64,000 nucleotides of DNA from Octopus sinensis (lineage: Eukaryota): NCBI RefSeq assembly GCF_006345805.1, contig NC_043009.1:66898001-66962000 (forward strand). Direction: 5' to 3'. The translations under genes were made by a program, and so were the position numbers. Every line of letters starts with the position of its first letter. The stretch's first letter is position 1. The notes under the pieces are model-generated. The model worked only from the letters and a program-made list of their open reading frames with translations, was not told the origin of the DNA and made no database searches. Positions 10,102 to 62,584 of the stretch are shown here, one piece after another.

Positions 10102-10345
10102 GGAATAAACACATAAATGTGAAACAAGGTGGAAAAAAGAGTACTCAAATACCAGTGGTAGAATAATATGCTTTATTTAAAGCAGCAGAAAATTCAACAA
10201 AAGCTGTTACTCTGAGTTTTCCGTTGCCGTTCGTCGGACAGTCTTTGCTAGAATTTTGTAGATTCCAGCAAAAACTGTCCGACGAACGGCAACGGGAAAC
10301 TCAGAGTAACAGGTTTTGTTGAATTTTCTGCTGCTTTAAATAAAG
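10100..10345. mobile_element. Penelope-like terminal repeat pair in inverted orientation (~180-bp hairpin) within (TA)n
   Basis: Arms ~10166-10255 and ~10263-10345; another copy at 58842-58971; each arm carries a hammerhead fold. Confidence 0.7.
10275..10312 (+). ncRNA. Minimal type-I hammerhead ribozyme-like motif (core CCGACGA, U4C); mirror copy 10204-10241 on minus
   Basis: ctgt-CCGACGA-a-cg gcaa cg-g-GAA-A ctc a gag U-A-acag. Confidence 0.6.
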
Positions 10346-11002
10346 TATATATATATATAACAATTGCAGCGTGGAAGGTGTTTATAAGCCATTTAAGAAA
10401 CACACAAAAGCCGTTCGATTCACTTCAACATTTAAGTTTAATTTGTCAAAATATTTTCGTCGCTAAAATCCGCGACCTGTTCACTGACAAAGTCCGTGCT
10501 GCATCTAAGAAAGTAACAGTAAGTTCGTCATATATATGTACGTATGTATGTGTGTATGTATGCATACATGTGTGTATGTATGTACGTATGCATGTACGCG
10601 CATACGCCTGTGTATGCATGTATGTATGTATGTATGTATGTATGTATGTATGTATGTATGTATGTATGTATGTATGTATGTATGTATGTATGTATATATG
10701 TATGTGTGTGTATATGCACGCACATACACTCTATAAAACATAAAGCTATAAACCTGTAGCGATGGATGGATGTAGAGTGACCACTCATCACAAAGCTATC
10801 AAATTTCAACTTCCTACGGCCGAAGCTAGAAAGTGATTTATGACGCTTACTCCCAAAACTATACCCTAAAATCTATTATCAGATTTTTATCTCTATATCA
10901 CAGAACTATTGTTTTACTATTGTGCGTATGTATGTATGTATGTGCGTATGTATGTATGTATGTATGTATGTATGTAGTATGTATGTATGTATGTATGTAT
11001 GT

Positions 11003-11182
11003 GTGGCAGTCTACAAGGGATCCTTAGGGGAGCTTAAGTTGAACATCCTATCAACACACCCCACCGATGCAATGTTGAGACAGGTCACAGAAGCTGTTTG
11101 TATACAAGAATACAAACCTACTCTCAACCGAAAGTCCGAATGGAATAACATCCAGATCCCATTCAGAAGGACTATTCTATAA
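11003..11182 (+). pseudogene. GIY-YIG endonuclease C-terminal fragment of a Penelope-like retroelement
   Basis: LNILSTHPTDAMLRQVTEAVCIQEYKPTLNRKSEW matches the PLE R...EA..I....P.LN motif. Confidence 0.75.
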
Positions 11183-11729
11183 CCAGCCCTCTCTCTCTCT
11201 CTCCCTTTTACCTGTAGTCCTTACATACGGGTTGCAACGCGTATGTGCAGTTATATACAACGGTATGAGCAGACGTTGTTTGATACGAACAGTTGCACCT
11301 AGGCGTTGTATCCATTCACGGTTAGACGATGATGAGAGGAACAAACACACACCCACACACATATATATATGTGTTTGTGCGTCTATACAAACATATATGT
11401 AAATATGTATACAACCTTCAGCAAAGTAACAGTCATGTACACAACTTGGACGGACACATGCCAGTACACGGACATACGTTCACATACACATACACATGTA
11501 CACACTCTCACAGACACATCTGCCTATTCTCCTAGACACTCACATACATACGTAGCACATGAATACAAACATACATACATACCTACGTATGGGCATACAC
11601 ACGTACATACGCACGTACATGTACGCACACACATACATGGGCACATGCACACGAGCGCGTATACATACATACGCACATGCGTACGTATGTACATACACAC
11701 ATACATACATACATACATACATACATACA

Positions 11730-11763
<34 letters not shown>

Positions 11764-12194
11764 CATACGCACATACATACATATATACGCACAATAGTAA
11801 AACAATAGTTCTGTGATATAGAGATAAAAATCTGATAATAGATTTTAGGGTATAGTTTTGGGAGTAAGCGTCATAAATCACTTTCTAGCTTCGGCCGTAG
11901 GAAGTTGAAATTTGATAGCTTTGTGATGAGTGGTCACTCTACATCCATCCATCGCTACAGGTTTATAGCTTTATGTTTTATAGAGTGTATGTGCGTGCAT
12001 ATACACACACATACATATATACATACATACATACATACATACATACATACATACATACATACATACATGCATACACAGGCGTATGTGCGTACATGCATAC
12101 GTACATACATACACACATGTATGCATACATACACACATACATACGTACATATATATGACGAACTAACTGTTACTTTCTTAGATACAGCACGGAC

Positions 12195-12244
12195 TTTGTC
12201 AGTGAACAGGTCGCGGATTTTAGCGACGAAAATATTTTGACAAA
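12195..12244 (+). ncRNA. Minimal type-I hammerhead ribozyme with G3-C8 swapped core (GUGAACA); mirror copy 10442-10491 on minus
   Basis: tttgtca-GUGAACA-g-gtcgc ggatttta gcgac-GAA-A atat U-U-tgacaaa: 7-bp stem I, 5-bp stem II, palindromic stem III. Confidence 0.7.
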
Positions 12245-12304
12245 TTAAACTTAAATGTTGAAGTGAATCGAACGGCTTTTGTGTGTTTCTTAAATGGCTT
12301 ACAA

Positions 12305-13373
12305 TCATCATCATCATTGTTCGACCGTGGTCGAGACAATGGAATTTACCATGTTGCGCCAGACTTCACGGTCCATCATAGCATTACGGAGGTCCTGTTG
12401 CTGGATGCCTGTATCCCTGGAGATTACATCAGGGTAGGAGAGTGTGCGCCCTCTGGTTGTTGCGAGTAGATGGCTTCCAGAGGAGAAGAGAGAAATTACC
12501 TTTTTCAGCTCTACAACAATGTCCAGCAAACTGGACTCTCCTACCCTTCACAAGAGATGACACAGGTGGTAATTTCCCATATATTTGCATTTTAGTTGGA
12601 TGGCGCCTCCACGAGAGATTTTGAGCTCTCATAAGGAGGCGAGTGTAGGTTCCATCCAACCGCTCTCAAGCTTCTTTGATAACGTCCAGGTTTCTGAGCC
12701 ATATAGTAGGATTGGTTCGACTGTGGCTTTGAATATTTCAAGTTTGAAGTCTCTACTTAGATTTGATGACCAGATCTTATGCATGTCATTACAGGCTGAC
12801 CAGGCCATACCCTTTCTAGTTAGAAAGTCTTTTCCAGATGATGATATGTATGACCCAAGATATTTATAATCAGAAACCATATTTAAGGGCGCATTGTTGA
12901 GAGTGTGGATGATGCAATCACTGTTGGACAGGCACTTGTTTATGTATTCAGTTTTGGCCTCATTAAGGTAAAGACCTACACAATTTGAGGCTTGTTCAAG
13001 AGATTGTAAAAGAGACTGGGCATTGGAGAGAGAATCACTGATAAGAGCGATGTCGTCAGCAAAGTCAGTGTCTGTCAAGTACTCAGCTGGGTGTCTGGAA
13101 CTTCTTCTTGGTTTTATTTCAAAGCCCTTGCCAGAGATGGTATCAACTGACATACGTAGCACATAATCAACAACAATGATGAAAAGAAATGGGGCGAGTG
13201 TGTCTCCCTGCAGTATTCCGGCCTCGATCGAGAAAGATGATGTTTCTCCATCAGGGGTTAAGATGGTTGAAGACGTATCTGTGTAGAGGACCTTGATGGC
13301 AGAAATAATTTTGTCTGGTATCCCATAGAGCTTAAGGATTTCAAACATCTTGCACCTATCTACAGAATCGAAC
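12305..13373 (-). mobile_element. 5'-truncated RTE-like LINE (reverse transcriptase C-terminal half) with (TGA)n tail and 8-bp TSD
   Basis: AFDSVDR, GILQGDTLAPFLF, DFADD, YKYLGS and ILLYGSETW; frameshifts near 12650 and 12490; TSD GCTTACAA at 12297-12304 and 13374-13381. Confidence 0.9.
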
Positions 13374-14211
13374 GCTTACAAACACCTTCCACGCTGCAAT
13401 TGTTTTCGTTTCAGCACACGATCTCAGATCAAATTACTTGCTATGCGAGTACATCTCAATATATATATATATATGTGTGTGTGTGTGGTGTGTGTGTGTG
13501 TGGTGGTGTGTGGTATGTGTGTGTGTGTGTTATGTGTGTGTGTATGATGTATATATATATATATATATTATATATATATAGTATATATATATATATATTA
13601 TATATATATCAAAGGAGCAAAAATACTGGTATATATTTATATATAAGTGCATATAAGTATGTATCATTGTACAAGAAAAGAGCATATTTCGCAGCCGAGA
13701 TGATGTAAAATCTTGAAAAGTTGCTGGTGTGCAAATCGCATCTAGTCTGGTGCTTATTGTATTATATAACTTCAAATAGATATTGCGTTGACACTAACAA
13801 TCCATCACATAATACAGCTTTAATAGATCGGCTCCCTCGTAATTTAAAAATATGGTCTACGCAGAAAGCAGTCATTGGAAGAAACATAAATAATACTAAT
13901 AAATACTAACATACATCACTCAAGCCGTATATTTTGGAGAAGAGTTTTAATACATATCTTATTGCATGATATAAAGAAACCTTAATCAATATATTCCTAC
14001 AGGATATAAAGCATCAATGCGTCTATATTCATAAGAACACGATTCATGCGACTGTTAGCTACATCAACCGATAGTAAAATCCACGACTGACTTACGTTCG
14101 CTGTTGTAAAGGAATTGTGTTTTTATGCAAGAGTAACATGTTAGCAAATAATTATGCATGAAATACTAACCGCTTCCATTACCCTGGAAATCTTTTGAAT
14201 ATCGGTTTCAG

Positions 14212-14412: not shown

Positions 14413-14448
14413 AGCCTTTGTGGGGGATTTCATTTGATATATATATAT

Positions 14449-14480
<32 letters not shown>

Positions 14481-15469: not shown

Positions 15470-18428
15470 TCGGTGGTGGTGGCGGCGGCGATGGAGGCGG
15501 CGGCGGCAGCGACGGTGTGGCAGTGGTGGTGGTGGTGGTTTCTGGTGGTGGTGGTGGTGGTGCTGGTGGTGGTGGTGGGGTGGTGCTTGTGGTGGTGCTG
15601 GTGGTGGGTGGTGTGGTGGTGGTGGTGGTGTGGTGGTGCTGGTGGTGCTGGTGGTCGGTGGTGGTGGTGGTGATGGTGGTGCTGGTGTGGTGGTGATGGT
15701 GGGTGGTGGTGGTGGTGTGGTGCTGGTGGTGCTGGGGTGGTGATGGTGGTGGGTGGTGTGGTGGGATGGTGGTGATGGTGCTGGTGGTGATGGTGGTGGT
15801 GGTGGTGATGGTGGTGGTGGTGCTGGTGGTTGGTGGTGGTTGGTGCTGGTGGTGGTGGGGTGCTGGTGGTGGTGGTGGGTGGTGGTGCTGGTGGTGGTGG
15901 TGGCTGGTGGTGGGTGGTGGTGGTGGTGGTGGTGGTGTGGTGGTGATGGTGGTGATGGTGCTGGTGCTGGTGGGATGGTGGTGCTGGTGGTGCTGGTGGT
16001 GGTGGTTGGTGGTGGTGGTGCTGGTGGTGGTGGTGGTGGGTGGTGGTGGTGGTGGTGGTGGTGATGGTGGTGCTGGTGCTGGTGGTGAGGTGGTGATGGT
16101 GGTGATGGTGGTGATGGTGTGGTGGTGATGGTGGTGCTTGTGGTGGGGCTGGTGGTGGTGGTGGTGGTGGTGGTGATGGTGTGGTGGGTTGCTGGTGGTG
16201 ATGGTGGTGCTGGTGGTGCGGTGGTGGTGGGGTGGTGGGTGGTGGTGTGGTGGTGGTGGTGGTGCTGGTGGTGCTGGTGGTGGTGGTGATGGTGGGGCTG
16301 GTGCTGGTGGTGCTGGTGGTGATGGGTTGGTGATGGTGGTGCTGGTGCTGGTGGTGATGGTGGTGATGGTGGTGATGGTGTGTGGTGCTGGTGGTGATTG
16401 GTGTGGTGATGGTGGTGCTGGTGCTGGTGGTGGGGTGGTGATGGTGGTGATGGTGGTGCTGGTGCTGGTGGTGCTGGTGGTGATGGTGGTGATGTGTGCT
16501 GGTGTGGTGGTCTGGTGGATGGTGGTGATGGTGGTGATGGTGGTGATGGTGGTGATGGTGGTGCTGGTGGTGGTGGGTGGTGGTGCTGGTGGTGGTGTTG
16601 TGGTGGTGATGGTGGTGCTGGTGTGGTGGTGGTGGTGGTGGTGGTGGTGATGGTGGTGGTGCTGGTGCTGGTGGTGATGGTGGCTGGTGGTGCTGGTGGT
16701 GGTGGTGGTGGTGGTGCTGGTGGTGGGGGTGATGTGTGGTGGTGGTGGTGGTGGTGGTGTGATGGTGGTGCTGGTGATGGTGGTGCTGGTGGTGATGGTG
16801 GTTGATGGTGGTGCTGGTGCTGGTGGTGATGGTGTGTGGTGGTGGTGCTGGTGGGGTGGTGGTGGTGGTGATGGTGGTGATGGTGCTGGTGGTGATGGTG
16901 GTGCTGTGGTGATGGTGGTGGTGGTGGGTGGTGGTGATGGTGGTGTGGTGTGGTGGTGATGGTGGTGTGGTGGTGATGGTGTGTGGTGGTGATGATGGGG
17001 GTGATGGTGGTGATGGTGCTGGTGGTGGTGGTGGTGGTGATGGTGGTGATGGTGTGGTGGTGATGGTGGTGATGGTGGTGATGGTGGTGCTGGTGCTGGT
17101 GGTGATGGTGGTGATGGTGGTGTGGTGGTGTGGTGGTGCTGGTGGTGCCGGTGCTGGTGGTGCTGGTGGTGATGGTGGTGATGGTGGTGCTGGTGCTGGT
17201 GGTGTGATGGTGGTGCTGCTGTGGTGGTGGTGGTGGTGGTGGTGGTGGTGATGGTGGTGGTGGTGGTGTGGTGGTGATGGTTGGTGCTGGTGCTGGTGGT
17301 TGCTGGTGTTGCTGTGGTGATGGTGGTGGTGTGGTGGTGGTGTGGTGGTGGGTGGTGGTGATGGTGGTGGGCTGGTGCTGTGTGGTGGTGATGGTGGTGC
17401 TGGTGGTGCTGGTGGTTGCTGGTGTGGGTGGGTGTGTGGTGGTGGTGGTGGTGCTGGTGGTGGTGGTGGTGGGTGGTGGATGGTGGTGATGGTGGTGATG
17501 GTGGTGCTGGTGGTGGTGGTGGGTGGTGGTGATGGTGGTGGCTGGTGGTGATGTGGTGCTGGTGGTGATGGTGGGCTGGTGGGTGGTGATGGTGGTGGTG
17601 GTGTGGTGGTGATGGTTGGTGTGGTGGTGGTGCTGGTGGTGATGGTGGTGGATGGTGCTGGTGGTGCTGGTGGTGGTGGTGGATGGTGGTGGTGGTGCTG
17701 GTGGTGCTGGTGGTGGTGGTGATGGTGGTGATGGTTGGTGTGGTGCTGGTGGTGCTGGTGGTGCTGGTGGTGGTGGTGGTGCTGGTGTGCTGGTGGTGCT
17801 GGTGGTGGTGGTGTTGTGGTGGTGTGGTGCTGGTGGTGATGGTGGTGATGGTGGTTGGTGGTGGTGGTGGTGTGGTGTGGTGGTTGCTGGTGTGCTGGTG
17901 GTGCTGGTGGTGCTGGTGGTGGTGGTGTGGTGGTGGTGCTGGTGGTGATGGTGGTGATGGTGTGTGGTGGTGGTGGTGGTGGTGGTGATGGTGGTGGTGC
18001 TGGTGGTGTGATGGTGGTGGTGGTTTTGCTGGTGGTGTGGTGGTGTGGTGGTGCTGGTGTGGTGCTGGTGGTGGTTGCTGGTGGTGCTGGTGGTGGTGGT
18101 GGTGGTGGTGGTTGCTGGTGGTGATGGTGCTGGTGGTGGTGGTGGTGGTGGTGTGTGGTGTGGTGGTGCTGGTGGTGCTGGTGGTGGTGGATGGTGGTGG
18201 TGGTGGTGGTGGTGGTGATGGTGGTGGTGGTGCTGGTGGTGCTGGTGGTGATGGTGGTGGTGGTGATGGTGTGGTGCTGGTGGTGCTGGTGCTGGTGGTG
18301 GTGCTGGTGGTGATGGTGGTGGTGGTGGTGCTGGTGGTGCTGGTGGTGCTGGTGCTGGTGGTGGGTGGTGGTGGTGATGGTGGTGGTGGTGCTGGTGGTG
18401 CTGGTGGTGCTGGTGGTGGTGGTGGTGG

Positions 18429-18459
<31 letters not shown>

Positions 18460-19706
18460 GGTGATGGTGGTGCTGGTGCTGGTGGTGGTGGTGGTGGTGG
18501 TGGTGATGGTGGTGGTGGTGCTGGTGGTGGTGGTGGTGGTGGTGATGGTGGTGCTGGTGGGGGTGGTGGTGGTGGTGCTGGTGCTGGTGGTGGTGGTGGG
18601 TGGTGGTGATTGGTGGTGGGTGGTGCTGGTGGTGATGGTGGTGCTGGTGCTGGTGGTGCTGGTGGTGCTGGGGTGGTGGTGGTGGTGGTGGTGGTGTGTG
18701 CTGGTGGTGGTGGTGTGGTGGTGATGGTGGTGTGATGTGGTGTTGGTGGTGGGTGGTGTGGTGGTGATGGTGGTGTCTGGTGGTGATGGTGGTGTGGTGG
18801 TGATGGTGAGGTGCTTGTGGTGGTGATGGTTGGTGCTTGGTGGTGGTGGTGGTGTGGTGCTGGTGTGGTGCTGGTGGTGCTGGTGGTGCTGGTGGTGATG
18901 GTGGTGCTGGTGGTTGATGTGGTGCTGGTGGTGCTGGTGGTGGTGGTGGTGGTGGTGCTGGTGGTGATGGTGGTGATGGTGGTGTGTGTGGTGGTGGTGA
19001 TGGTGTGTGGTGGTGATGGTGGTGGTGGTGGTGATGGTGGTTGCTGTGGTGGTGATGTGGTGTGGTTGTGCTGGTGGGGTGGTGTGGTGGTGGTGGTGGT
19101 GATGGTGATGGTGGTGGTGATGGTGATGGTGGTGCTTGTGGTGCTGGTGGTGATGGTGCGTGGTGGTGTGGTGGTGATGGTGGTGGTGGTGGTTGCTGGG
19201 TGTCGTGCTGGTGTGTGGTGGTGTGGTGGTGGTGGTGGTGGTGTGATGGTGGTGGTGGTGTGGTTGCTGGTGCTGGTGGTGGTGTGGTGGTGTGGTGGTG
19301 GTGGTGGTGATGGTGATGGTGGTGCTGGTTGGTGTGGTGCTGGTGGTGGTGGTGGTGGCTGGTGATGGTGGTGGTGGTGGTGGTGGTGGTGGTTTGGCTG
19401 GTGGTGGTGCTGGTGGTGGGCTGGTGGTGCTGGTGTGGTGGTGGTGCTGTGATGGTGGTGCTGGTGCTGGTGGTGCTGGTGGTGCTGGTGGTGCTGGTGG
19501 TGGTGGTGGTGGTGTGGTGGTTGGGGGTGTGCTGGATGGTGGTGATGGTGGTGGGTGGTGCTGTGTGGTGGTGGTGCTGGTGGTGGTGCTGGTGATGGTT
19601 GGTGCTGGTGATGTGGTGTGCTGGTGGTCTGTGGTGATGGTGGGTGGTGGTGGTGGTGGGTGGTGGTGGTGGTGGTGTTGGTGGTGTGGTGGTGGTGGTG
19701 GTGGTG

Positions 19707-19737
<31 letters not shown>

Positions 19738-22700
19738 GGTGGTGGTGCTGGTGGGTGGTGGTGTGGTGATGGTGGGGTGATGGTGGTGGTGTTGAGGTGG
19801 TGATGGTGGTGCGGTGGTGGTAGGGTGGTGGTGGTGCTGGTGGTGGTGGTGGTGGTGGTGGTGGGTGGTGGTGGTGGTGGTGGGGTTGGTGGTGGTGGTG
19901 GTGGTGGATGTGGTGGTGGTGATGGTGGTGGTGGTGGTGGTGGTGTTGCTGGTGCTGGTGGTGCTGGTGGTGTGGTGGTGGTGGTGGTGCTGGTGCTGGG
20001 TGGTGCTGGTGGTGCTGGTGGTGCTGGTGGTGGTGGTGGTGGTGGTGATGGTGGTTGCTGGTGTGGTGATGGTTGGTGGTGCTGGTGGTGATGTGGTGGT
20101 GATGGTGTGGTGATGGTGGTGCTGGTGGTGTGATGGTGGTGATTGGTGGTGGTGATTGATGGTGGTGATGGTGCTGGTGGTGTGGTGGTGCTGGTGCGGT
20201 GGTGGTGCTGGTGATGGTGGTGCTGGTTGCTGGTGTGTGGTGGTGTGGTGGTGGTGGTGGTGATGGTGATGGTGGTGCTGGTGCTGGTGGTGCTGGTGGT
20301 GCTGGTGGTGCTGGTGGTGGTGGTTGGTGGTGGTGGTGTGGTGGTGGTGGTGGTGGTGGTTGGTGGTGGTGGTGGTGCTGGTTGTGGTGGTGCGGTGGGT
20401 GGGGTGTGGTGGTGGTGGGTGGTGGTGGTGATGGTGGTGGTGGTGCTGGTGGTGATGGTGGTGCTGGTGCTGGTGGTGCGGTGGTGCTGGTGGTGCTGGG
20501 GTGCTGGTGTCTGTTGGTGTGGTGGTGCTGGTGGTGATGGTGGTGCTGGTGGTGCTGGTGGTGCTGGTGGTGGTGGTGGTGCTGGTGATGGTGGTGCTGG
20601 TGCTGGTGGTGATGTGGTGCTGGTGGTGCTGGTGGTTGGTGGATGGTGGTGGTGGTGTGGTGGGATGTGTGATGGTGGTGCTGGTGCTGGTGGTGGTGAT
20701 GGTGGTGATGGTGGTGCTGGTGGTGGTTGGTGGTGGTGGTGCTGTGGTGGTGGTGCTGGTGGGTGGTGGTGGTGGTGGTGATGGTGGTGGCTAGGTGATG
20801 GTGGTGATGGTGGTGATGTGGTGATGGTGGTGGTGCTGGTTGCTGGTGGTGATGGTGGTGCTGGTGGTGCTGGTGGTGGTGGGGATGGTGGTGGTGGTGA
20901 TGGTGGTGCTGGTGCTGGTGGTGATGTGTGTGGTGGCTGGTGAGTGATGGTGGTGGTGGGGTGGTGTGGTGCTGGGGTGGTGGTGCTGGTGGTTGACGGG
21001 GGTGGTGGGTTGGATAGATTGGTGAGTGCTGGTGCTGGTGGTGTGGTGGTGGTGATGTGGTGAGGGTGTGTGGTGCTGGTGGTGATGGTGGTGATGGTGT
21101 GGTGATGGTGGTGCTGGTGCTGGTGGTGCATGGTGGTGATGGTGGTGTGGTGCTTGATGGGGATGGTGGATGGTTGGTGAGGGTGGTGATGGTGATGGTG
21201 GGATGGTGGATGATGGTGGATGATGGTGGCCTCAGGTGATGGTGTATGGGTGGTGATGGTGGTGATGGTGGTGATGGTGGTGTGGTGGTGCTGGTGGTGG
21301 TGGTGGTGGTGGTGCTGGTGGTGCTGGTGCTGGTGGTGATGGTGGTGATGGTGGTATGGGGTGGTGGTGGTGGTGTGATGGTGGAGTGCTTGCGGTGCTG
21401 GTGGTGATGGTGGTGCTGGTGGTGATGGTGGTGGGTGGGGTGGTGGTGGTGCTGGGGTGGGGTTGGTGCTGGTGGTGGTGGTGGTGGTGGTGATGTGGTA
21501 TGGGATGGTGCTGGTGGTAGTGCTGATGGTGTGGTGCATGGTGGTGATGGTGGATGGTGGTGTGGTGATGGTGGTGATGTGGTGGTGCTGGTGGTGTGGT
21601 GTGGTGGTGGTGATGGTGGTGTGATGGTGATGGCTGGTGATGGTGGGGTGTTGATGGTGGTGATGGTGGTTGGTGGTGCTGGTGGTGTGGTGGTGGTGAG
21701 GGTGTGGTGCTGGTGCTGGTGGTGATGGTGGTGATGGTGGTGATGGTGGTGGTGGTGATGGTGGTGCGGTGGTGATGGTGGTTGATGGTGCTGGTGGTGG
21801 TGGTGGTGATGGTGGATGTGGTGCTGGTGGTGATGGTGATGATGGTGAGGTGGTGATGGTGGTTGCGGTGATGGTGGTGATGGTGGTGGTGGTGTGCTGG
21901 TGGTGCTGGTGGTGGTGGTGGTGGTGCGGTGCTGGTGGTGCTGGTGGTGATGGTGTGGTTGATGGTGGTGCTGTGCTGTGTGGTGATGGTTGGTGCTGGT
22001 GGTGGTGGTGGTGGTGGTGGTGGTGGTGATGGTGGTGGTGGTGTTGGTGGTGGTGATGGTGGTGCTGGTGTGGTGGTTGTGGTTTGGGGATGGTGGTGAT
22101 GAGGTGGTGGTGGTGGTGGTGGGTGGTGGTGATGGTGGTGCTGGTGCTGGTGGTGATTGGTGGTTGCTGGTGGTGCTGGTGGTGTGCGGTGGGGTGGTGG
22201 TGATGGTGGTGTGGTGGTGCTGGTGGTGGTGGTGGTGGTGGTGATGGTGGTGATAGGTGGTGTGCTTGGTGGTGGTTGTGGTGGTGGTGGTGGATGGTGG
22301 TGCTGGTGGGTATGGTGGTGCTGGTGGTGATGGTGGTGTGCATGGTGGTGATGGCTGGTGGTGGTGGTGGTGGTGAGTGATGGTGTGTGTGGTGGTGAGG
22401 GTGGGGATGGTGGTGATAGTGCTGGTGGGGATAGTGGCGGTGGTGGTGATGGTGGTGGGGTGTGATGGTGGTGCTGGTGGTGGTGGTGATGGTGGTGATG
22501 GTGGTGATGGTGGTGCTGGTGGTGTGGTGGTTGATGGTGGTGGTGGTGGTGGTGATGGTGGTTGATGGTGGTGATGGTGGTGGTGGTGGTGATGGTGGTG
22601 GTGGTGGTGCTGGTGGTGATGGATGGTGATGGTGTGGTGGTGGTGGTGGTGGTGCTGGTGGGATGGTGTTGAGTGATGGTGTGCTGGTGGTGATGGTGGT

Positions 22701-25700
22701 GCTGGTGGTGGTGGGGTGATGGTGGTGATGGTGGTGGCGTGGTGTGGTGGTGGTGGTGGTGGTTGGTGGTGGTGATGGTGATGGTGGTGATGGTGGTGGT
22801 GATGGTGGTGGTGGTGAAGGGTGGTGATGGTGGTGGTGATGGATGGGGTGGTGGTTGATGGTGGTGTGGTGATGGTGGTGCTGGTGGTGGTGAGTGGTGT
22901 GGTGTGTGTGTGGTGGTGGTGGTGTGTGGTGGTGATGGTGATGGTGGTGGTGGTGGCTGTGTGGTGGTGGATGGTGGTGGTGGTGGATGGTGGTGGTGGT
23001 GGTGGATGTGGTGGTGGTGGTGATGGTGGTGGTGGTGGTGGTGGTGGTGATGTGGTGTTGTGGTGTGATGTGGTGCTGGTGGTTGATGGTGGGTGGTGGT
23101 GATGGTGGTGATGGTGGTGATGGTGGTGATGGTGCTGTGGTGGTGGTGATGGTGGTGATGGTGGTTGGTGGGTGATGGTGGTGATGGTGGTGATGGTGGT
23201 GGTGGTGGTGGTGGTGTGTGGTGATGGTGGTGGTGTGGTGATGGTGTGTGGTGGTGCTGGTGCTGGTGGTGGTGGTGGGTGGTGGTGATGGGGGTGGTGG
23301 TGCTGGTGGTGATGGTGGTGATGGTGCTGGTGGGTGGTGTTGGTGGTGGTGGTGATGGTGGTGGTGGTGCTGGTGTGGTGGTGGTGGTGGTGGTGATGGT
23401 GGTGGTGGCTGGTTGCTGGTGGTTGTGGTGGTGATGGTGATGGTGGTGGTGGTGGTGGTGGGTGGTGGTGGTAGGTGGTGTGGTGGTGGTGCTGGGTGGT
23501 GATGGTGGTGCTGGTGATGGTGGTGCTGGTGGTTGCTGGTGGTGGTGGTGGTGCTGGTGGTGGGTGGTGTGGTGGTGGTGGTGGTGGTGGTGATGGTGGT
23601 GGATGGTGGTGATGGTGGTGGTTGGGTGGTGGTGGATGGTGGTGATGGTGGTGATGGTGGGGGTGATGGTGGTTGATGGTGGTGATGTGGTGATGGTGGT
23701 GGTGTGTGGTGATGGTGGTGTGGTGGTTGGTGTGGTGCTGGTGGTGCTGGTGGTGCTGGTGTGGTGTGGTGGTGATGGTGGTTGATGGTGGTGATGGTGG
23801 TGATGGTGGTTGTGGTGGTGGTGGTGGTGGTGGGGTGCTTGGTGGGGGCTGGTGGTGCTGGTGCGGTGGTGGTGGTGGTGGTGATGGTGGTGGTGGTGGT
23901 GATGGTGGTGTGAGGTGGTGATGGTGGTGATGGTGGTGATGGTGGTGCTGGTGGTGATGTGGTGGTGGTGGTGCTGGTGATGGTGGTGATGGTGGGGGTG
24001 GTGTGTGGTGGTTGGTGGTGTGCTGGTGGTGGTGGTGATGGTGGTGGTGGGTGGTGATGGTGGTGGTGGTGGGTGGTGGTGGTGGTCTGGTGGTGGTTGG
24101 TGATGGTGCTGGTGGTGGTGGTGGTGGTTGGTGATGGTGGGTGGTGGGGGGTTGTGGGTGGGTGGTGCTGGTGGTGATGGTTGGTGGTGGTTGTGGTGGT
24201 GGTGATGGTGGTGCTGGGATGGTGGTGTGGTTGGTGGTGGTGGTGGTGGTGGTGGTGGTGGTTGGTGGGTGATGGTGGGTGGTGGTTGGTGGTGGGTGGT
24301 GCTGGTGGTGGTGTGGTGGTGGTGCTGGATGGTGATGGTGGGTGCTGGTGATGATGGTGGTGGTGGTGCTGGTGATGGTGGTGATGGTGCTGGTGGTGCT
24401 GGTGGTGCTGGTGGTGATGGTTGGTGGTGGTGGTGGTGTGGTGGTGGTGGTGCTGGTGGTGGTGCTGGTGTGGTGGGATGTGGGTGTGATGGTGCTGGTG
24501 GTGGTGATGGTGATGGTGGTGATGGTGATGGTGGTGCTGGTGGTGTGGTGGTGGTGTGGTGGTGGTGGTGGTGGTGGTGTGGTGGTGGTGGTGTGGTGGT
24601 GGTGGTGGTTGGGGGTGGTGGTGGTGGTGGTTGGTGGTGGTGGTGATGGTGGTTGGGGTGATGGTGGTGGTGGTGGTGATGGTGTGGTGCGGTGGTGGTG
24701 GTGGTGGTGGTGTGGTGGGGTGGTTGGTTGGTGGTGGTGTGGTGGTGTGATGGTGGTATGGTGGTGGTGGTGGTGGTGGTGGTGGTGGTGGTGGTTGTGG
24801 TGCTGGTGTGGTGGTGGTGGTGGTGCTGGTGGTGGATGGTGGTGGTGGTGGTGGTGGTGGTGTGGTGGTGCTGGTGGTGGTGGTTCTGGTGGTGTGTGGT
24901 GGTGGGTGGTGGTGGTGCTGGTGTGATGGTGGTGGTGTGGTGATGGTGGTCTGGTGTGTGGTGGTGGTGGTGGTGGTGATGGTGGTGCTGGTGGTGATGG
25001 TGGTGCTGGTGGTGATGGTGGTGATGTAGGTGGTGATGGTGGTGCTGGTGGTGATGGTGGGTGGTGGTGATGGTGGTTGCTGGTGATGGTGGTGGTGGTG
25101 GTGGTGCTGGTGCTGGTGGTGGTGATGGTGATGGTGGTGGGCTGGTGCTGGTGGTGCTGGTGGGTTGGTGGTGGTGGTGGTGTGGTGATGGTGGTGCTGG
25201 TGCTGGTGGTGTGGTGGTGCTGGTGGTGCTTGGTGGTGGTGGTTGGTGGTGGTGATGGTGGTGGTGGTGGTGGTGGTTGGTGGTGGTGGTGGTGGTGCTG
25301 GTGCTGGTGGTGCTGGTGGTTGTGGTGGTGTGGTGCTGGTGGTGGTTGGTGGTGATGGATGGTGGTGGTGGTGCTGGTGGTGATTGTGGTGATGGTGCTG
25401 GTGGTGCTGGTGGTGATGGTGGTGCTGTGGATGGTGCTGGTGGTGATGGTGGTGCTGGTGGTGTGGTGTTGGTGCTGGTGGTGGTGATTGGTGGTGGTGC
25501 CTGGTGATGGTGTGGTGCTGGTGGTGGTTGTGAGGTGGTGCTGGTGGTGTGCTGGTTGGTGGTGGTGGTGGTGGTGATGGTGGGTGAGGGTGCTGGTGGT
25601 GATGGTGGTGCTGGTGCTGGTGCTGGTGGTGGTGCTGGTGCTGATACTGGTGGCGGCGGTGGTGGTGGTGACGGCGGCGGCGGCGGCGGTGGTGGTGGTG

Positions 25701-26040
25701 GTGGTGGTGGTGGTGGTGGTGACGGCGGCGGCGGTGGTGGTGCTGGTGATGGTGGTGCTGCTGCTGGTGCTGGCGGCGGCGGCGGCGGTGGCGACGGCAG
25801 CAGCGGTGTGGTGGTGGTAGTAGTGGTGGGGGAGTGGTGGTGGGGGTGATGATGGGGTGAATGTGGGGTGTAATGGTGGTGGTGGTGGTGGTGGTGGTGG
25901 TGGTAGTAGTGGTGGTGGTTGTGGCGGTGGTGGTAAAGGTAGCGGAGGGATGGCGTTAGGAGTGATGGCGACGGTGGTAGCGGCTATAGTGGGCGGGTGG
26001 CGGTGGAGGCGGGCGGTTGGCAGTTACAGTAGTGATGGTG
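15470..26040. repeat. ~10.6-kb degenerate (GGT)n trinucleotide array with GAT/GCT/GGC variants
   Basis: Continuous GGT-based repeat, G/T-rich on the plus strand, with many 1-nt phase shifts. Confidence 0.95.
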
Positions 26041-26467: not shown

Positions 26468-26557
<90 letters not shown>

Positions 26558-26559
26558 CG

Positions 26560-26740
26560 CTAGCCACTACACATTCTTTATTTTATCTCCTTGTTTCTTT
26601 CTGTGTTCCTTTCTGTGGAAGAGCGTAGGCTCGAAAAGTTAAAGACATTTTCACTTCCCGAGTGTTAAACTAATACATCTGTTTGTTGTCTACACCACCT
26701 GTCTTCGTCTTTTGTTATTTTGTGAATTCTCCCCCTATAT
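26560..26740 (+). mobile_element. Short Penelope-like terminal repeat family with hammerhead-like motif (core CUGUGGA) at 26609-26644
   Basis: Near-identical copy at 36305-36462 and truncated copy at ~45775-45818; flanked by (GATA)n and (TA)n. Confidence 0.65.
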
Positions 26741-26805: not shown

Positions 26806-27005
26806 CCTCGTGTGTACCGTTGGCGATTTTTTTTCCTCTGTCTTCCTTCACTAGGTCTTTGCTTATCCTATGTTTCCGACGAAGAGCTCCGCTCGAAACG
26901 TTAAACCCTCCTTCTTTCCTTCTTTCCTGAGCGTCCAATAATACTATATTTGTTCCACATCCTCGCGTTGCTGTGATTTTTGTGATTTCTTGTTTAGATT
27001 AATTT
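26806..27005 (+). mobile_element. Short Penelope-like terminal repeat with hammerhead-like motif (core CCGACGA) at 26872-26906
   Basis: gttt-CCGACGA-a-gagc tcc gctc-GAA-A cg U-U-aaac; flanked by TA/TACA repeats. Confidence 0.6.
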
Positions 27006-36304: not shown

Positions 36305-36462
36305 TAGCCACTACACATTCTTTAGTGTTTCTTTCTGTGGAAGAGCGTAGGCTCGAAACGTTAAAGACTTTTTCACTTCTCGAGCGTTATACTAATACAT
36401 CTGTTTGTTGTCTACATCACCTGTCTTCGTCTTTTGTTTCTTTTTTTTGTGAATTCTCCCCT
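36305..36462 (+). mobile_element. Penelope-like short repeat with hammerhead-like motif at 36330-36367
   Basis: tcttt-CUGUGGA-a-gagc gtag gctc-GAA-A cg U-U-aaaga; copy of 26560-26740. Confidence 0.65.
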
Positions 36463-36785
36463 GGCTCAGTGGTTAGAGCGTCGAGCTTACGATCGTGAGG
36501 TTGTGAGCTCGAATCCCAGACCGGGCTGCGTGTTGTGTTCTTGAGCAAAACACTTTATTTCACGTTGCTCCAGTTCACTCAGCTGTAGAATTGAGTTGCG
36601 ACGTCACTGGTTCCAAGCTGTATCGACCTTTGTCTTTCCCTTGGATAACACTGGTGGCGTGGAGAGGGGAGGCCGGTATGCATGGGCGACTGCTGGTCTT
36701 CCATAAACAACCTTGCCCAGACTTGTGTCTAGGAGGGTAACTTTCTAGGTGCAATCCCATGGTCATTCATGACCGAAGGGGGTCA
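36461..36785 (+). mobile_element. SINE family C
   Basis: Near-identical to 4042-4378. Confidence 0.85.
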
Positions 36786-36787
36786 AG

Positions 36788-37193: not shown

Positions 37194-37248
<55 letters not shown>

Positions 37249-37257
37249 ATATATATA

Positions 37258-37273
37258 TACATACATACATACA

Positions 37274-37328
<55 letters not shown>

Positions 37329-37808
37329 TCAATTTTGGGGGATTAATCGATATGCGGGTAGATTATACCCATATTTATAATCCCCTATAAATACCCATAG
37401 ATCCCTGCTATCTTCTTCCTCAAATCACCATTTTAGTATCACCAAAAAAAAAAGGAAGATATGTATTTGAATTTTTCTTGTATGTCACATTTAAACACAG
37501 ACATTTTTATTCTGATGTTTAATCTTATATCTCACATTCTGTATTGGACATATACTTGATTTTACATGATTGATATATATACTAATATTTATAGTGTATA
37601 ATTTATAAATTTTAATTCTTAATATTACAAAGTATAATTTTTATTCTTATTTTTAATTCGTAATTTTTATCTTTAATGTCTAATTGTATTGCTTATTTTA
37701 AAGGGATGTAAAATTAGATATATAATATTTTGAAATAGAACCCGAAGATGTGTTGGAATAATTGTAAATCTGACGATTGCATATATGTATAGTCGTGAAT
37801 ATATATAT

Positions 37809-37859
<51 letters not shown>

Positions 37860-38329
37860 CGACTATACATATATGCAATCGTCAGATTTACAATTATTCC
37901 AACACATCTTCGGGTTCTATTTCAAAATATTATATATCTAATTTTACATCCCTTTAAAATAAGCAATACAATTAGACATTAAAGATAAAAATTACGAATT
38001 AAAAATTAAGAATAAAAATTATACTTTGTAATATTAAGAATTAAAATTTATAAATTATACACTATAAATATTAGTATATATATCAATCATGTAAAATCAA
38101 GTATATGTCCAACACAGAATGTGAGATATAAGATTAAACATCAGAATAAAAATGTCTGTGTTTAAATGTGACATACAAGAAAAAATTCAAATACATATCT
38201 TCCTTTTTTTTTTTGGTGATACTAAAATGGTGATTTGAGGAAGAAGATAGCAGGGATCTATGGGTATTTATAGGGGATTATAAATATGGGTATAATCTAC
38301 CCGCATATCGATTAATCCCCCAAAATTGA

Positions 38330-38384
<55 letters not shown>

Positions 38385-38400
38385 TGTATGTATGTATGTA
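37258..38400. repeat. ~1.1-kb near-perfect palindrome (arms ~550 bp) centred on (TA)n at ~37800-37856
   Basis: 37327-37800 is the reverse complement of 37856-38331 with only a few substitutions and homopolymer differences. Confidence 0.95.
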
Positions 38401-38402
38401 TG

Positions 38403-38436
<34 letters not shown>

Positions 38437-38462
38437 TGTATGTATGTATGTATGTATGTATG

Positions 38463-40371: not shown

Positions 40372-42079
40372 CACTACCGTCAGAAATTAATTAGTACCCT
40401 TGATTTGCTCTTCACTCAAGGTATGTGCTGTCACCTAGTGGCCATATCTCGAACTATTGCTTTGTTGCGAGTTCACCGTTGCGCAGAACGATGACATAAC
40501 TTTGTTTGCAGAGCGGTTTGAAAGTCTACAGCCTAATGATGTTGACATAGCAGTGCAACAACAACTTGGAGTGCGGATGCAGACAAATCTTCCTCTGTTT
40601 AATAGATATAGGTAGCGCCTCGCAAGGACCGAAATTACACCGTACTAAGTTTTCTCATCGTGTAAGACGTTTTGAACAGCTCGTAGGTTAATTGATTTGT
40701 GTATTTGCAAGATTTTTTTTCCTCACAAATTCTCCTACACTCTGCTTCGTGACGTCACTTCCGGTTCACAAAACTTTCTGTTATAAATCAAATAAGGTGA
40801 GAAATTCTGCTTTCTTTCTTTTTTGCTTAATGAATAATAACTCATAGCAGTTTTGTTATAGCATAACATTATTCAAATGAATAGTTTTAATGAAAATAAC
40901 TGGTTTTTATCGTTCATTCCTAGATGGGCCCAGACCTCGCATGACCTTGGAGAGACGGTACGAGCTGCTCTCGTGGCGTGGGAAGCTGTCGGAGGAGACT
41001 GCAATAGCCAGAAACTTGGTGTAGCCAGGCGCACAATTCAGTGCTTATTTAAGAAATACGAGGAAACCGGATCAGCAGCTGACAAAAAGGGTAGGGGACG
41101 GAAGAGGCTGACGACCCAGCGGGAGGACCGGATGCTGATCCGAAAGTCACTGAACAACCGAAGGGCAACGAGCCGGCAACTGGTGGAGGAGATGCAAAAG
41201 CAGTTGTCTACAACCACCGTCAAGACCAGATTACTGGAAGCTGGTCTAAAATCCTGTAGGGCCGCCTGTAAGCCGCTCCTTACAGCCCAAAACCGGAAGA
41301 GGTGGCTGCTCTGGGCCCGTGCCCACAAGACATGGACCGTGCAGCAGTGGCAGACAGTGATGTTCACTGACGAGTCGCGATTCAGTCTCGTCAGTGACAA
41401 GCCTGTCCATGTGCGACGCTGCAGGGGTGAGCGCTTCAACAAAGACTGCATTGCTCCCACCATGAAGCATGGTGGGGGTTGTCTGATGGTGTGGGGGGCG
41501 TTCAGCTACAGTGGTGTTGGGCGGCTCTATGCCGTCGAAGGCAACATCAACGCAGCAAAGTACGTTGAGATAGACGCGGATGCTGCCCTACCCTCTGCGG
41601 ATACCTCTTTGGTGGCGAGGAGTACGTGCTCCAGCAGGACAACGCGCCTTCCCCACACAGCCAAGCTCACAACCGGTTTCTTCAAGGACCATGGGGTGAC
41701 GGTCATGGACTGGCCTGGCCAGTCACCTGACCTGAACCCTATTGAGAACCTCTGGAGTCGATTGAGTAGGGATTTGAATGTGCAGCAATACAGGAACCGA
41801 CACGAGCTGTTTGGGGCACTTCTTGCTGCATGGAGGGCCATCCGCACAGTACCTGCAGGCACTCATAGACAGCATGCCGGCCCGTAAGCAGCTGTCATTG
41901 CTGCCAAAGGAGGAGCAACAAGATATTGACTAATTTCACGATTAATAACAATTATGTGGTGTGCTGGGATATGTTTTAATAAATTTTTGATTAAAAACGA
42001 TTCGTTTCTGATAATAAGTTAAGAAAATGTAAGAAAATGTAGAAATTTGAGAAGTGCTAATTAATTTCTGACGCAAGTG
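40372..42079 (+). mobile_element. Full-length Tc1-family DNA transposon (~1.7 kb)
   Basis: 26-bp TIRs (cactaccgtcagaaattaattagtac / gtgctaattaatttctgacgcaagtg, 3 mismatches), TA on both sides, internal transposase. Confidence 0.92.
40924..41929 (+). pseudogene. Tc1 DD34E transposase with a few frameshifts
   Basis: GRGRKR, KPLLT, VMFTDESRF (D at 41369), QQDNA in a shifted frame (D at 41638), WPGQSPDLNPIENLW (E at 41744) and AVIAAKGGATRY*. Confidence 0.9.
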
Positions 42080-43284: not shown

Positions 43285-44777
43285 CACCATTCACTCACCA
43301 TCTTGTCTCTTTGACACATAAACGATCACCCACTCCAACCGCTCTCCATACACACACACACAGACATACACAAAGAAACGACACACACATATAACACCAA
43401 CACTGTCACACGTTACCCCTTTTCTCCACGTACACACACGCAGAGATACATATACACTTACACCGATGTACATTCACCCACGCATACACTCGCACACACA
43501 CACACACTTACTCACACACACACACACATCCCTCCTCCCTCACCCGTTCCTGTTTTACTTGTCTACTCTGTGGGTCACACCTTCCTTGTCACCGAAAAGC
43601 TTTCTAACGCACACATCCCTACACACACTACATCTATTACTTACTGCCCTTTACTCTCCGCTCTCCTTTCTGAAGAGATTTTTCTTTCGATCTCGCCATA
43701 TTATTTCACACAATGCACTTTTAACCAACTTTTCGGCAACACACGTTCCTGCCCTTAACTGTTCAATACTCCTACCTCTTCTCGATAGATTTTACCAGGT
43801 TCTCCTCCGTGTGAATTCTAATTCTTTACCGTCCTTAGACGCTCCATCAACCCCTCCGGAGTTTTTACTAGTTTTGTAATTTTTAAAAAAAATCATTTCT
43901 GTCGCCCTTTTCTTCTCTTCACAAAACTAATAACTTTTCTTTCTTTTGCTCATTTTAGTTTTAACCTTTCTTCCGTCTAAAACCGTTTCACATTCATATA
44001 TTTGTACACCCATTTATTTACCACACCCTTCACATTCCCTCTTGCCTTTCCTCAACTATACCTTTTGCACACTCCGTTTAACCTTCCTCGACTCTTTACC
44101 AGTGATTTATAATTTTTAAATATTTTTTCTTTGACTTTTCTTCTCGTAGAACTTATAATATTTTTTTTTCTTCAGCGTAAAAAAGTCTCACACCTTATAC
44201 CCTCGCTCACACATACACATCTATCAAACCTTTCACATTCCACTTGCCTTCCCACTCGCCTCGCGCTCGCTAACGCATCTTTATATCAACGCATTCTTCA
44301 CACACAAACATTAACACACCACTAACCTATGCCAATACACTTTCACACTTAAGCACTTATACACATCCCTCCCCAAAAAATACACACACCAGTCTCTCAT
44401 ACGCCTGCATCCAGAGACAGATACACTCCTATACTTAAACATGTTCACCTGCACCCGCTTCCTTTATTTTCTTCTCCAGGTTACTGACCTCTCTTCTGTT
44501 TTCTTTCTCAATGACTAATCCTTTTTCTCACTCCTATACTTTTCTCTTTCTATTGATGAAGGTCTAACGTCCGAAACGTTAAGCCTCCCTCTTTTGTCCT
44601 ACTGTGTAGTTTTTTTAGCAATTCACCGTATTTATAGTATAAGTGTGTATGTATGCATGTATGTACACATTACTGTGCATGCATGCATGCATTTATATAT
44701 TTTTGTATATGTATGCGCGTGTGTGTACGTTTTTGTGTACGTATGCGTGTATCTATATATTTTTGTGTACATGGAGC

Positions 44778-45078: not shown

Positions 45079-45178
45079 NNNNNNNNNNNNNNNNNNNNNN
45101 NNNNNNNNNNNNNNNNNNNNNNNNNNNNNNNNNNNNNNNNNNNNNNNNNNNNNNNNNNNNNNNNNNNNNNNNNNNNNN
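45079..45178. other. Assembly gap (100 N)
   Basis: Run of n. Confidence 1.
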
Positions 45179-45459: not shown

Positions 45460-45659
45460 GTGATAAAAATGGTAAGACAACAAAATAATGAAAGAGACCT
45501 CGATATTATGTAGATAGAGGAATTTATCTGTAAATGTAATATGTGACAATTATCCGATGACGGATAACTGAAGAGATGACGGCGTGGATTTCCACCTCGG
45601 CATCCGAAACTCGGAGTTCATCGTGGCTACCGAATAATTGTCACATATTACATTTACAG

Positions 45660-56971: not shown

Positions 56972-57050
56972 TGCATATATATATATGCATATGATACATA
57001 TATGCATATATATACAACATACATCATGCGTACATACGTACAAATATGTA

Positions 57051-57098
<48 letters not shown>

Positions 57099-57823: not shown

Positions 57824-57855
<32 letters not shown>

Positions 57856-58380: not shown

Positions 58381-58841
58381 GCATACATACATACATACAT
58401 ACATACATACATACATACATACATTCATACATACATACATACATACATACATACATACATACATACATACATACATACATTCATACATACATACATACAT
58501 ACATACATACATACATTCATACATACATAATACATACATTCATAATACATACATACATACATACATACATACTACATACATTCATACATACATACATACA
58601 TACATACATACATACATACATACATTCATACTACATACATACATACATTCTACATACATACATACATACATACATACATACATACATCATACATACATAC
58701 ATACAATACATACATACATGCAATACATACATACATACATACATACATACATACATACATACATTCATACATACATTACATACATACATACATACGTACA
58801 TACTACATACATACATACATACATTCATACATACATACATA
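58381..58841. repeat. (TACA)n tetranucleotide array
   Basis: Read directly. Confidence 0.95.
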
Positions 58842-58971
58842 CGGCAACGGGAAACTCAGAGTAACAGGTTTTGTTGAATTTTCTGCTGCTTTAAATAAAG
58901 CATATTACTCTACCACTGGTATTTGAGTACTCTTTTTTCCACCTTGCTTCACATGTATGTGTTTACTCCGG
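58842..58971 (+). mobile_element. 5'-truncated copy of the 10100-10345 Penelope-like repeat (3' half of the hammerhead retained)
   Basis: cggcaacggGAAActcagagTAacagg... nearly identical to the reverse complement of 10100-10229. Confidence 0.8.
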
Positions 58972-58994
58972 TATATATACATATATATATATTA

Positions 58995-59392
58995 TGCGCA
59001 GGAGTGACCCAGTGGTAAGAAGCTTGCTTCCCAACCACATGGTTTTGGGTTCAATCCCACTGCGTGGCACCTTGGGCAAGTGTCTTCTACTAAAGCCTCA
59101 GGCTGACCAAAGCCTTGTGAGTGGATTTGGTAGACGGAAACTACAAGAAGCCCATCGTGTATATATGTATATATTTATGTGTGTGTGTCTTTGTCCTTCT
59201 CCCACCATCACTTGACAACCGGTGCTGTTGTGTTTACGTCCCCGTAACTTAGCGGTTCGCCAAAAGAGACCGATAGAATAAGTACCAGGCTTAAAAAATA
59301 AGTACTGGAGTTGATTCATTCGACTAAAAATTCAAGGCGGTGCCCCAGCATGGCCGCAGCTTAATGACTGAAACAAGTAAAAGATAAAAAGA
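58995..59392 (+). mobile_element. SINE family A
   Basis: Homologous to 7627-8030. Confidence 0.85.
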
Positions 59393-61317: not shown

Positions 61318-61348
<31 letters not shown>

Positions 61349-61405
61349 CATACAAAACGAACATATAAACACGCACACTCATATACATGTGTGTGGAGTG
61401 TATGC

Positions 61406-61458
<53 letters not shown>

Positions 61459-62339
61459 TATATCATATGTGTATATATGCCACATGCATACAGTCACATT
61501 TAATAGTATACACACCTGTAAACACACAAAAGAACTGACAAACAGACGCCCACACGCACACACATGGCACATCGACACACTTTTCACTTTCACGCACACA
61601 AGCATACAGTCATACACTTACAGAAACACATACACACACACACACACACACACCCGTACACACACATCAATATATCTGAATGAGTACAATAACGATTCTT
61701 TTACTGGTTTCCACAAGAGGTTGTGGCCATGCTGGGACACCAGTCAATGCTCTCATACATCGTATATATATTTTTCAATTAGATTAATGTGTATATGTGA
61801 GTGTGTATATACATACCTATACATGTATAGATATATACATATAGTTTGATTTACACAATTTAGAGTTATGGGTAACCAATAGTTTCATACATTGGAGATA
61901 TATTCTAGGCAGGTTTTAATAACACGCCTGGCATCTCCCGGCAATCTTCGGGCTCTGCTCACATGGCTTATACAAGTTACAAATCAGGACAACAAAACTC
62001 ACGAGAAAAAACAAGAGGAAGGTGGATGCAAAAAGCGGAAGGGTGGAAGAAACGGGAAACGAAAGGTAAAAGGAAAGATAATTATAGTTATGTCCCCTTT
62101 GGCCGTAAAGACATAAAGCCAGTTGGTGTAGAATCAACGGAATAATGGATCTAAAGTCTGCGATACAGCTGCTCAATCTAGATATATATATATATTGAAA
62201 TGAGGAGTCGACAACTGATGAAGGGTCGCTTTCTGTGTTTACTTGTTTTCCATTTTTTCATCGCTGTTTACGTATTTAACTCGTTTGTTTTCGTATTACA
62301 TGTTATTTACACAGTTAGTGACGTCCTATAACCCATATA

Positions 62340-62388
<49 letters not shown>

Positions 62389-62397
62389 ATATATAGA

Positions 62398-62454
<57 letters not shown>

Positions 62455-62536
62455 CATACATATATAAAAATTAACAGAATGAGATAAAAAAAAATCCAAG
62501 GCTGTGAACAGTTTTCAGAACATTTATAAAGAGAAG

Positions 62537-62584
62537 GTCTTACAGCTGTTTCCGGAATATTTTATATAGCCCTTCATCAGAGAC
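62537..62584 (-). ncRNA. Minimal type-I hammerhead ribozyme, canonical core
   Basis: gtct-CUGAUGA-a-ggg..tcc-g-GAA-A cagctg U-A-agac; palindromic stem III ACAGCUGU and GUA triplet; lies in a ~160-bp insert between microsatellites. Confidence 0.75.

Follow-up and report, generated by a model that had tools for sequence, protein, structure and literature searches.

A 64,000-nt stretch of Octopus sinensis DNA (contig NC_043009.1, positions 66,898,001 to 66,962,000, forward strand; the window in what follows), part of a 2.72 Gb genome rich in microsatellites, contains several families of short repeats that carry minimal type I hammerhead ribozyme motifs. These repeats are very likely the 3′ ends (pseudo-long terminal repeats, pLTRs) of several Penelope-like elements (PLEs). 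In our overall reading, which we hold at a probability of about 0.72, they are truncated or inverted PLE 3′ ends, each family having its own minimal type I hammerhead and three families having fixed changes in the core, and the element transcripts are likely cut slowly. The families are labelled here by the sites cited in the initial annotation: A (10275, 10204, 58842), B (12195, 10442), C (26609, 36330; subfamily C1), D (26872), E (45568), F (62537) and G (44553).

Link to Penelope-like elements

The proposed link to PLE open reading frames (ORFs) was found elsewhere in the genome for families A, B and E and for subfamily C2, all joined to ORFs of the reverse transcriptase (RT)/GIY-YIG type, and weakly for family F. 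The motif lies about 100–130 nt from the 3′ end of the pLTR. Two complete pLTR-ORF-pLTR elements were recovered (loci L230 and L353), in which the motif is carried twice, 3.4 and 4.5 kb apart. The first, of family A, is a unit of 3,381 bp whose frameshifted ORF has RWK, DKT and CxxC/CxH motifs and no CCHH. In the second, a unit of 4,508 bp, the pLTRs of subfamily C2, both with the core CUGUUGA, flank an open 1009-codon frame (RVT_1, E 1.3e-7). The C2 endonuclease gave 14,554 first-look candidates in the genome, and all of the 150 that were scored reached at least 90%. Family B is represented at L215 by an open 839-codon frame of the order RT-linker-endonuclease, with YVDD, a CxxxCxxC linker and a GIY-YIG-type end; its motif stands about 1.07 kb behind the stop codon. 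At L231 the pLTR of family E passes directly into the start of a Hydra-type ORF bearing RWK. The closest named relative of one element's protein was a predicted RT protein of Octopus vulgaris, at 54% identity.

The status of C1, D and G as pLTRs comes only from the homology of their flanks to the C2 pLTR (z 3.6–10). The same alignments show that the families are not all unrelated, as they had been described: the 3′ flanks of C, D and G align outside the motif (300 shuffles), and the other family pairs gave z ≤2.1 by the same procedure. Several ORFs close to motifs were rejected as chance neighbours, namely for C at L232 and L066, for E at L149 and L225, for F at L233 and L166, for an F-like motif at L318 and for G at L189, L199 and L202. 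Separately, remnants of PLE ORFs that are 40–55% identical to the protein P0001 were seen at L232, L233, L246 and L284.

Motif census in the window and in a genome sample

Motifs were sought with a relaxed type I descriptor in which G5 was fixed and at most two core changes were allowed; it demanded at least four Watson-Crick pairs in stem I, a stem II, GAAA and a palindromic helix III. Six matches were found in the window (10275+, 10442−, 12195+, 26872+, 36330+ and 62537−), against a mean of 0.13 and a maximum of 2 in 30 local dinucleotide shuffles. Since the descriptor had been drafted with the window sites already known, an independent genome sample is the fairer test. In 80 segments of 10 kb, taken at fixed intervals from the 17 largest contigs (799,900 bases), 17 motifs were present, compared to a mean of 1.6 and a maximum of 2 in five shuffles. 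The hammerhead population is dense, as had been claimed, with about 19 motifs per Mb net of chance or, extrapolating from this 0.8 Mb sample, very roughly 50,000 genome-wide; the density in the window is 4–5 times that of the sample. Only three of the 17 sample motifs matched CUGANGA. The prediction that a strict search would miss most intact copies is thus borne out (14/17, about 1.6 of these being expected by chance), and CUGANGA descriptors undercount the motifs of this genome several-fold. First-look candidate counts per family, which are lower bounds, ranged from 30 (G) to 2,359 (F).

Twelve sites had been cited as hammerheads. The expected minimal order, stem I-core-stem II-GAAA-helix III-UH-stem I′, is present in six intact window copies and in the family majorities, and the quoted core strings all stand in their places except at 58842, which has no core. 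Four further sites are damaged: 10204 (motif 10204-10241), where G12 has become A; 26609, which has AAGU where the family has ACGU; 45568, where stem I is lost in this copy and intact across family E; and 44553, where U3 is the minority state of family G (C3 in 17/28 copies, U3 in 7/28). The last site, 37742, was rejected as a hammerhead, having no GAAA behind it and belonging to an arm of an inverted repeat 1.27 kb long.

The atypical cores could in principle have arisen by chance matching, or by mutation of single copies, in AT-rich repeats. Such an origin does hold for 44553, 10204, 26609, 45568 and 37742, and Rfam gave no hammerhead in the best 150 of 329 window matches (E up to 10), those listed being mainly microsatellite hits to microRNA models, nor any at gathering score in the three PLE loci L230, L231 and L353. 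As a general explanation it is extremely improbable in view of the excess of motifs over shuffles in both window and sample, the fixation of cores by family and the covariation described below, and for B, C and D it is already refuted.

Core variants are fixed in families

For families A, C and D the genome was searched with the 3′ flank of the motif alone, so that the core was unselected. U6 was present in 24 of the 25 scored copies of family C (5 of 30 were unscored); at least four subfamilies could be distinguished, all with U6, whereas N7 varied (G 11, U 10, A 5 and C 1 in 28 clustered motifs). Family D had C4 in 23/28 copies, the remainder being mostly CpG decay. In family A, C4 occurred in 11/22 copies and marks subfamilies, A2/A3 having U4C and A1 a canonical core. 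The core GUGAACA of family B was found in 30/30 best matches, a biased set as the query included the core. Another 17 loci, encountered by chance and more divergent, had it in 12 cases and C3-G8 in none. Contigs of four runs (four other organism codes) that covered family B, thinly and with the kind of run guessed, listed no alternative letter at 12202/12207. Families E and F have canonical cores, and the majority of family G is CUGAUGA.

A CUGANGA consensus, or its U3-A8 form, therefore fits E, F, the G majority and A1 and fails for B, C, D and A2/A3. The genuinely additional features are the family-fixed cores G3-C8 (B), U4C (D and part of A) and A6U (C). That each family has a different core variant was an overstatement, as CUGANGA covers both E and F, CCGACGA is common to A and D, and only a minority of G copies have UUGAUGA. 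Families B, C, D and G do have the extra base reported after A9. In the remaining families it is placed otherwise, A and F having one on each side of stem II and E one on the 3′ side only.

A D-like motif with the canonical core CUGAAGA was seen at L372:1288-1322, which suggests that U4C arose inside the D lineage. Hammerheads of two additional families, in which the core is U3-A8 and helix III is ACCGGU, were observed at L318 (near 6730, minus strand), L226, L293:8748 and L113; one of them sits about 0.7 kb behind a Neptune-like PLE ORF. Hammerhead-like motifs of other non-window families, with longer helix III palindromes, occur at L328:176, 2543 and 9695, L294:5581, L283:1273, L195 and L068.

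Constraint between lineages and neutral decay of copies

In the main test for constraint, 30 C1 loci chosen by flank were compared to five C2 loci chosen by ORF. The two subfamilies differ in 0/31 constrained columns, 1/5 free columns (N7) and 61/168 flank columns (p 7e-6). Between C1 and D the differences amount to 4/31 constrained, 5/5 free and 92/164 flank columns, the four constrained changes being one compensatory stem I pair and positions 4 and 6. The comparisons A1/A2, E1/E2 and B1/B2 used motif-anchored copies and are biased; the subfamily comparison was therefore redone with the flank- or ORF-chosen copies above. B1 and B2 differ at 0/41 motif positions vs 17/103 in the flank, in the biased motif-anchored set only.

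The proposed conservation of the stems is also reflected in covariation. In a hand-picked alignment of 13 related rows from C, D and G, 87% of the cells were paired and double changes were seen at 5/8 pairs. The covariation score was 0.407 vs 0.206 for shuffled alignments and was reached by 0/500 shuffles; the double-change count was equalled in 29/500. Positions 3 and 8, whose pairing the descriptor did not demand, were Watson-Crick in 9/9 multi-copy clusters (seven C-G, one G-C and one U-A; 2.0 Mb of loci). A permutation test on stem I (36/36 pairs) was discarded as circular, because the descriptor requires stem I.

The motif is constrained between master lineages and subfamilies. Within families, non-CpG change in motif and flank was 4.4% vs 3.9% for C1 and 1.9% vs 1.7% for D, with 4/26 and 6/28 copies, respectively, unaltered over the motif. 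These motifs mutate as fast as their flanks, and the dispersed copies are therefore not under selection.

Arrangement and ends of the copies

The annotated association with microsatellites was found within 40 nt of the query 3′ end in 29/30 loci for A, 29/30 for D, 26/30 for F, 24/30 for C and 15/30 for E (background 12%); the old family G is the exception, with 1/30. Inverted partners were frequent (A 17/30, E 12/30, F 9/30), and the family B copy in the window has the typical arrangement of inverted and forward arms. Same-strand neighbours within 1.5 kb were rare: 0/30 for B, one pair each for A (241 bp) and E, one for C, one for F and five for D, at least one of the latter being a cross-match to C. 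Genomic 5′ ends did not pile up at the predicted cut, falling within 5 nt of it in 1/29 copies each for A, C1 and D.

The initial annotation had seen in these repeats a retrozyme-like, non-autonomous population, and they might accordingly be independent elements that amplify by their own ribozyme. C1 and D lend themselves best to this view: their common unique sequence reaches only about 130–140 nt upstream of the predicted cut, and pLTRs are given as the source of retrozymes in the part covered of a 2026 preprint (10.64898/2026.07.22.740005). Because of this bounded short length and the lack of an ORF-linked copy in 30 loci of each, C1 and D may be short non-autonomous derivatives. For the population as a whole we regard independent amplification as decidedly unlikely, since the repeats of A, B, C2 and E belong, as pLTRs, to PLEs that have an ORF. 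No head-to-tail arrays of hammerhead-bearing units were found among the copies, which are solo or inverted and rarely tandem; the motifs are minimal, whereas retrozymes carry the canonical type according to the part of PMC7229834 covered; and dispersed copies show neutral decay.

Proposed mechanism and catalytic activity

Taking PLE insertion and cleavage biology from PMC11167929, the review PMC6765202 and part of PMC4209133, the GIY-YIG endonuclease would nick (TA)n-rich DNA, and reverse transcription would begin at the pLTR end and mostly stop early or switch strand. Nearly every insertion would thereby have the motif, whether it works or not. The two pLTR motifs of one full-length transcript would pair via the palindromic helix III and then cut after H17, slowly, either as a dimer or aided by the protein of the element, and the copy that is reverse-transcribed would mostly be uncut.

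The variant cores would differ in activity, G3-C8 acting as a compensatory pair and U4C and A6U as slowed versions. In a full double-mutant scan, G3-C8 was the only rescue in the CUGA region (PMC9901934), and an engineered C3G/G8C change partly rescues a PLE hammerhead that depends on protein for cutting (PMC11167929). Given that G3-C8 was the sole rescue and that the others were low, family B probably cuts, while C and D would be slow cutters or would keep the fold for binding. For the canonical and G3-C8 forms, at least, cleavage is probable, and A6U is the variant for which the predicted cleavage is least certain. A bolder proposal, which we consider rather doubtful, is that autonomous PLE lineages have fixed cores expected to be crippled (A6U, U4C) or engineered only (G3-C8) and would cut in vivo via protein or a pLTR dimer. 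If so, most PLE ribozymes of such genomes would have escaped strict searches (14/17 here), PLE families reported without hammerheads would perhaps also have been overlooked, and nature would have provided, in the A6U element, a test of whether cutting is required of PLE hammerheads.

Several results weigh against our overall reading. A minimum-energy monomer fold with stems I and II was predicted only for B and two C1 copies, and predicted dimers join through helix III for A and F only. CUGA-region mutants other than G3-C8 had low activity in the double-mutant scan (PMC9901934), which speaks against good activity of U4C and A6U, and catalytic mutants of an Anolis motif were unimpaired in insertion in vitro (PMC11167929). 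No constraint signal was seen in the motif-anchored comparisons of A1 with A2 (2/33 vs 8/119) or E1 with E2 (3/38 vs 13/83), both young pairs. On the side of the ORFs, C1, D and G gave no ORF-linked copy in 30 loci each. The 3′ untranslated region (UTR) of family F exceeds 1.3 kb, and upstream of it a single Hydra-like endonuclease remnant, itself decayed, was found (E 3e-7), where an initial walk had met microsatellites only. P0001 had no Pfam match, and the GIY-YIG match of C2 was below the curated cut-off.

Some of these points would also suit a PLE origin in which the variant motifs, A6U foremost, no longer cut and the fold is a structural signal that serves the PLE protein or the start of reverse transcription. 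U6 is fixed in C1 and occurs in an open, very abundant element. Changes of A6 are harmful, A6C giving <0.1 per min in the portion of PMC3088659 covered (see also PMC9901934). Insertion in vitro is independent of catalysis (PMC11167929), and genomic copies are not cut-ended. We nevertheless find loss of cleavage improbable, because G5, the G8/C3 pairing, A9, GAAA, the UH site and a free N7 match the catalytic consensus across subfamilies, and wherever the 3-8 pair has been fixed in another form, that form is a Watson-Crick pair of the sort compatible with chemistry.

On their own, PLE hammerheads cut poorly, and in one study insertion in vitro did not depend on catalysis. The elements of this genome that are intact or nearly so provide a matched series of natural variants: canonical (A1, E, F), compensatory (B with G3-C8, and the two U3-A8 families) and predicted to be damaging (C with A6U, D with U4C). 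A6U has been held through four subfamilies, with N7 drifting, in a PLE that ranks with the most abundant of this genome, and is therefore suited to telling a cutting role apart from a structural one.

Features of the window

The coordinates of the motifs and related features are collected in Table 1. The 3′ end of the family B element is broken near 12290 by an insertion within which a long interspersed nuclear element (LINE) RT fragment (RVT_1) lies at 12632-13375 on the minus strand. A repeat resembling a short interspersed nuclear element (SINE), with a tRNA-like head and no ARAGORN call, has two copies at 36462-36787 and 4051-4426, one of which separates the 3′ end of a C1 element from its (TA)n. 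The inverted repeat at 37197-38461 has arms that are 96.5% identical, a (TA)n centre and (ATAG)n/(TATG)n tails, and no ORF was seen in it. The window further contains a degenerate (GTG)n array of 10.4 kb (15523-25934), a Tc1/mariner-type transposase frame of 341 codons (40862-41884, plus strand; HTH_Tnp_Tc3_2, DDE_3) and an assembly gap of 100 N (45079-45178).

Table 1. Hammerhead motifs and associated features of the window (window positions)
Feature	Position	Strand	Description
Family A inverted arm	10100..10243	−	extends to the pLTR 3′ end
Family A motif	10275..10312	+	core CCGACGA (U4C); 2-bp stem II with GNRA loop; helix III palindrome; predicted cut after A10308; forward arm of an inverted pLTR-end pair
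Family B inverted arm	10360..11005	−	intact motif at 10442-10491, core GUGAACA
Family B PLE ORF, final 60 codons	11000..11179	+	end of GIY-YIG domain; 88% identity to P0001
Family B 3′ UTR and pLTR	11180..12290	+	internal (TACA)n is part of the element
Family B motif	12195..12244	+	core GUGAACA (G3-C8 swap); 7-bp stem I; 5-bp stem II; helix III AAUAUU; predicted cut after U12237
Family C1 motif	26609..26644	+	core CUGUGGA (A6U); helix III damaged; element ~26557-26736
Family D motif	26872..26906	+	core CCGACGA (U4C); intact; element ~26807-27005
Family C1 motif	36330..36367	+	core CUGUGGA (A6U); intact; element end 36461
Inverted repeat, 1.27 kb	37197..38461	.	contains cited site 37742
Old family G motif	44549..44584	+	decayed: U3, broken stem I; family majority CUGAUGA
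Family E motif	45563..45625	+	canonical CUGAAGA; long stem-loop II; inverted arm of the same element precedes
Family A 3′ end	58842..58992	+	begins inside stem II; no catalytic core
Family F motif	62537..62584	−	canonical CUGAUGA; perfect 8-nt helix III palindrome; element ~62476-62615

Comparison with known systems

By their motifs, family C would be Neptune-like and family B Nematis-like. The linker CX2-5CxxC and CCHH endonuclease of Neptune/Nematis-type PLEs, as given in the part of PMC8557442 covered, are present in C2 (DKG, Cx4CxxC) and in B (DKS, Cx3CxxC). With the Hydra-clade PLEs of the same source, families A and E share RWK, DKT instead of DKG, (TA)n insertion and partial-tandem or inverted structures. 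The Hydra-clade set of RWK with DKT, absence of CCHH and (TA)n insertion is thus found, by motifs, among A and E, the C-terminal endonuclease without CCHH being seen in A only. Family A differs in its linker (CxFx5C in two copies vs CxCx5C) and in the U4C of its subfamilies, whereas canonical hammerheads are reported for the Hydra clade. Targeting of (TA)n and inverted PLE structures had already been published there.

Non-LTR retrozymes, as described in the parts of PMC7229834 and 10.64898/2026.07.22.740005 covered, are likewise short, carry type I hammerheads and are akin to PLE pLTRs. They are also non-coding, a state that A, B, C2 and E do not share and that C1, D and G may. They are, however, head-to-tail tandem units with a hammerhead in each and are expressed as circles, whereas the copies described here are solo or inverted.

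As to the variant cores, U4C, A6C and U3-A8 have been described from nature, their activity being either lowered or preserved, and A6U and a natural G3-C8 are not among the variants in the covered portion of PMC3088659. In the literature searched, G3-C8 appears only as an engineered rescue (PMC11167929, PMC9901934, PMC3884650). No report of a natural G3-C8 or A6U was found there, Lunse et al. 2017 and one supplement of PMC4209133 lying outside the coverage; these cores may already be on record, as Lunse et al. 2017 may list them. Nor did this literature yield a report of hammerheads with octopus retrotransposons.

Among the closest known systems is also the population of metazoan PLE minimal hammerheads in PMC4209133. 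The part of that paper covered describes thousands of heterogeneous motifs per genome, mostly single and probably derived from truncated PLEs, with a U3-A8 variant in some families that was overlooked by the authors' first descriptor. The general phenomenon, with many diverse minimal hammerheads, an extra base and (TA)n, is thus already published and ordinary in kind. The octopus motifs share with that population the type I topology, the palindromic or missing helix III, the extra base between A9 and 10.1 and the location in pLTRs. They differ from it in that stem II of A and F is flanked by an extra base at either side, in that A is without the G10.1-C11.1 closing pair and, as far as the text and part of the supplement of PMC4209133 go, in the family-fixed cores G3-C8, U4C and A6U.

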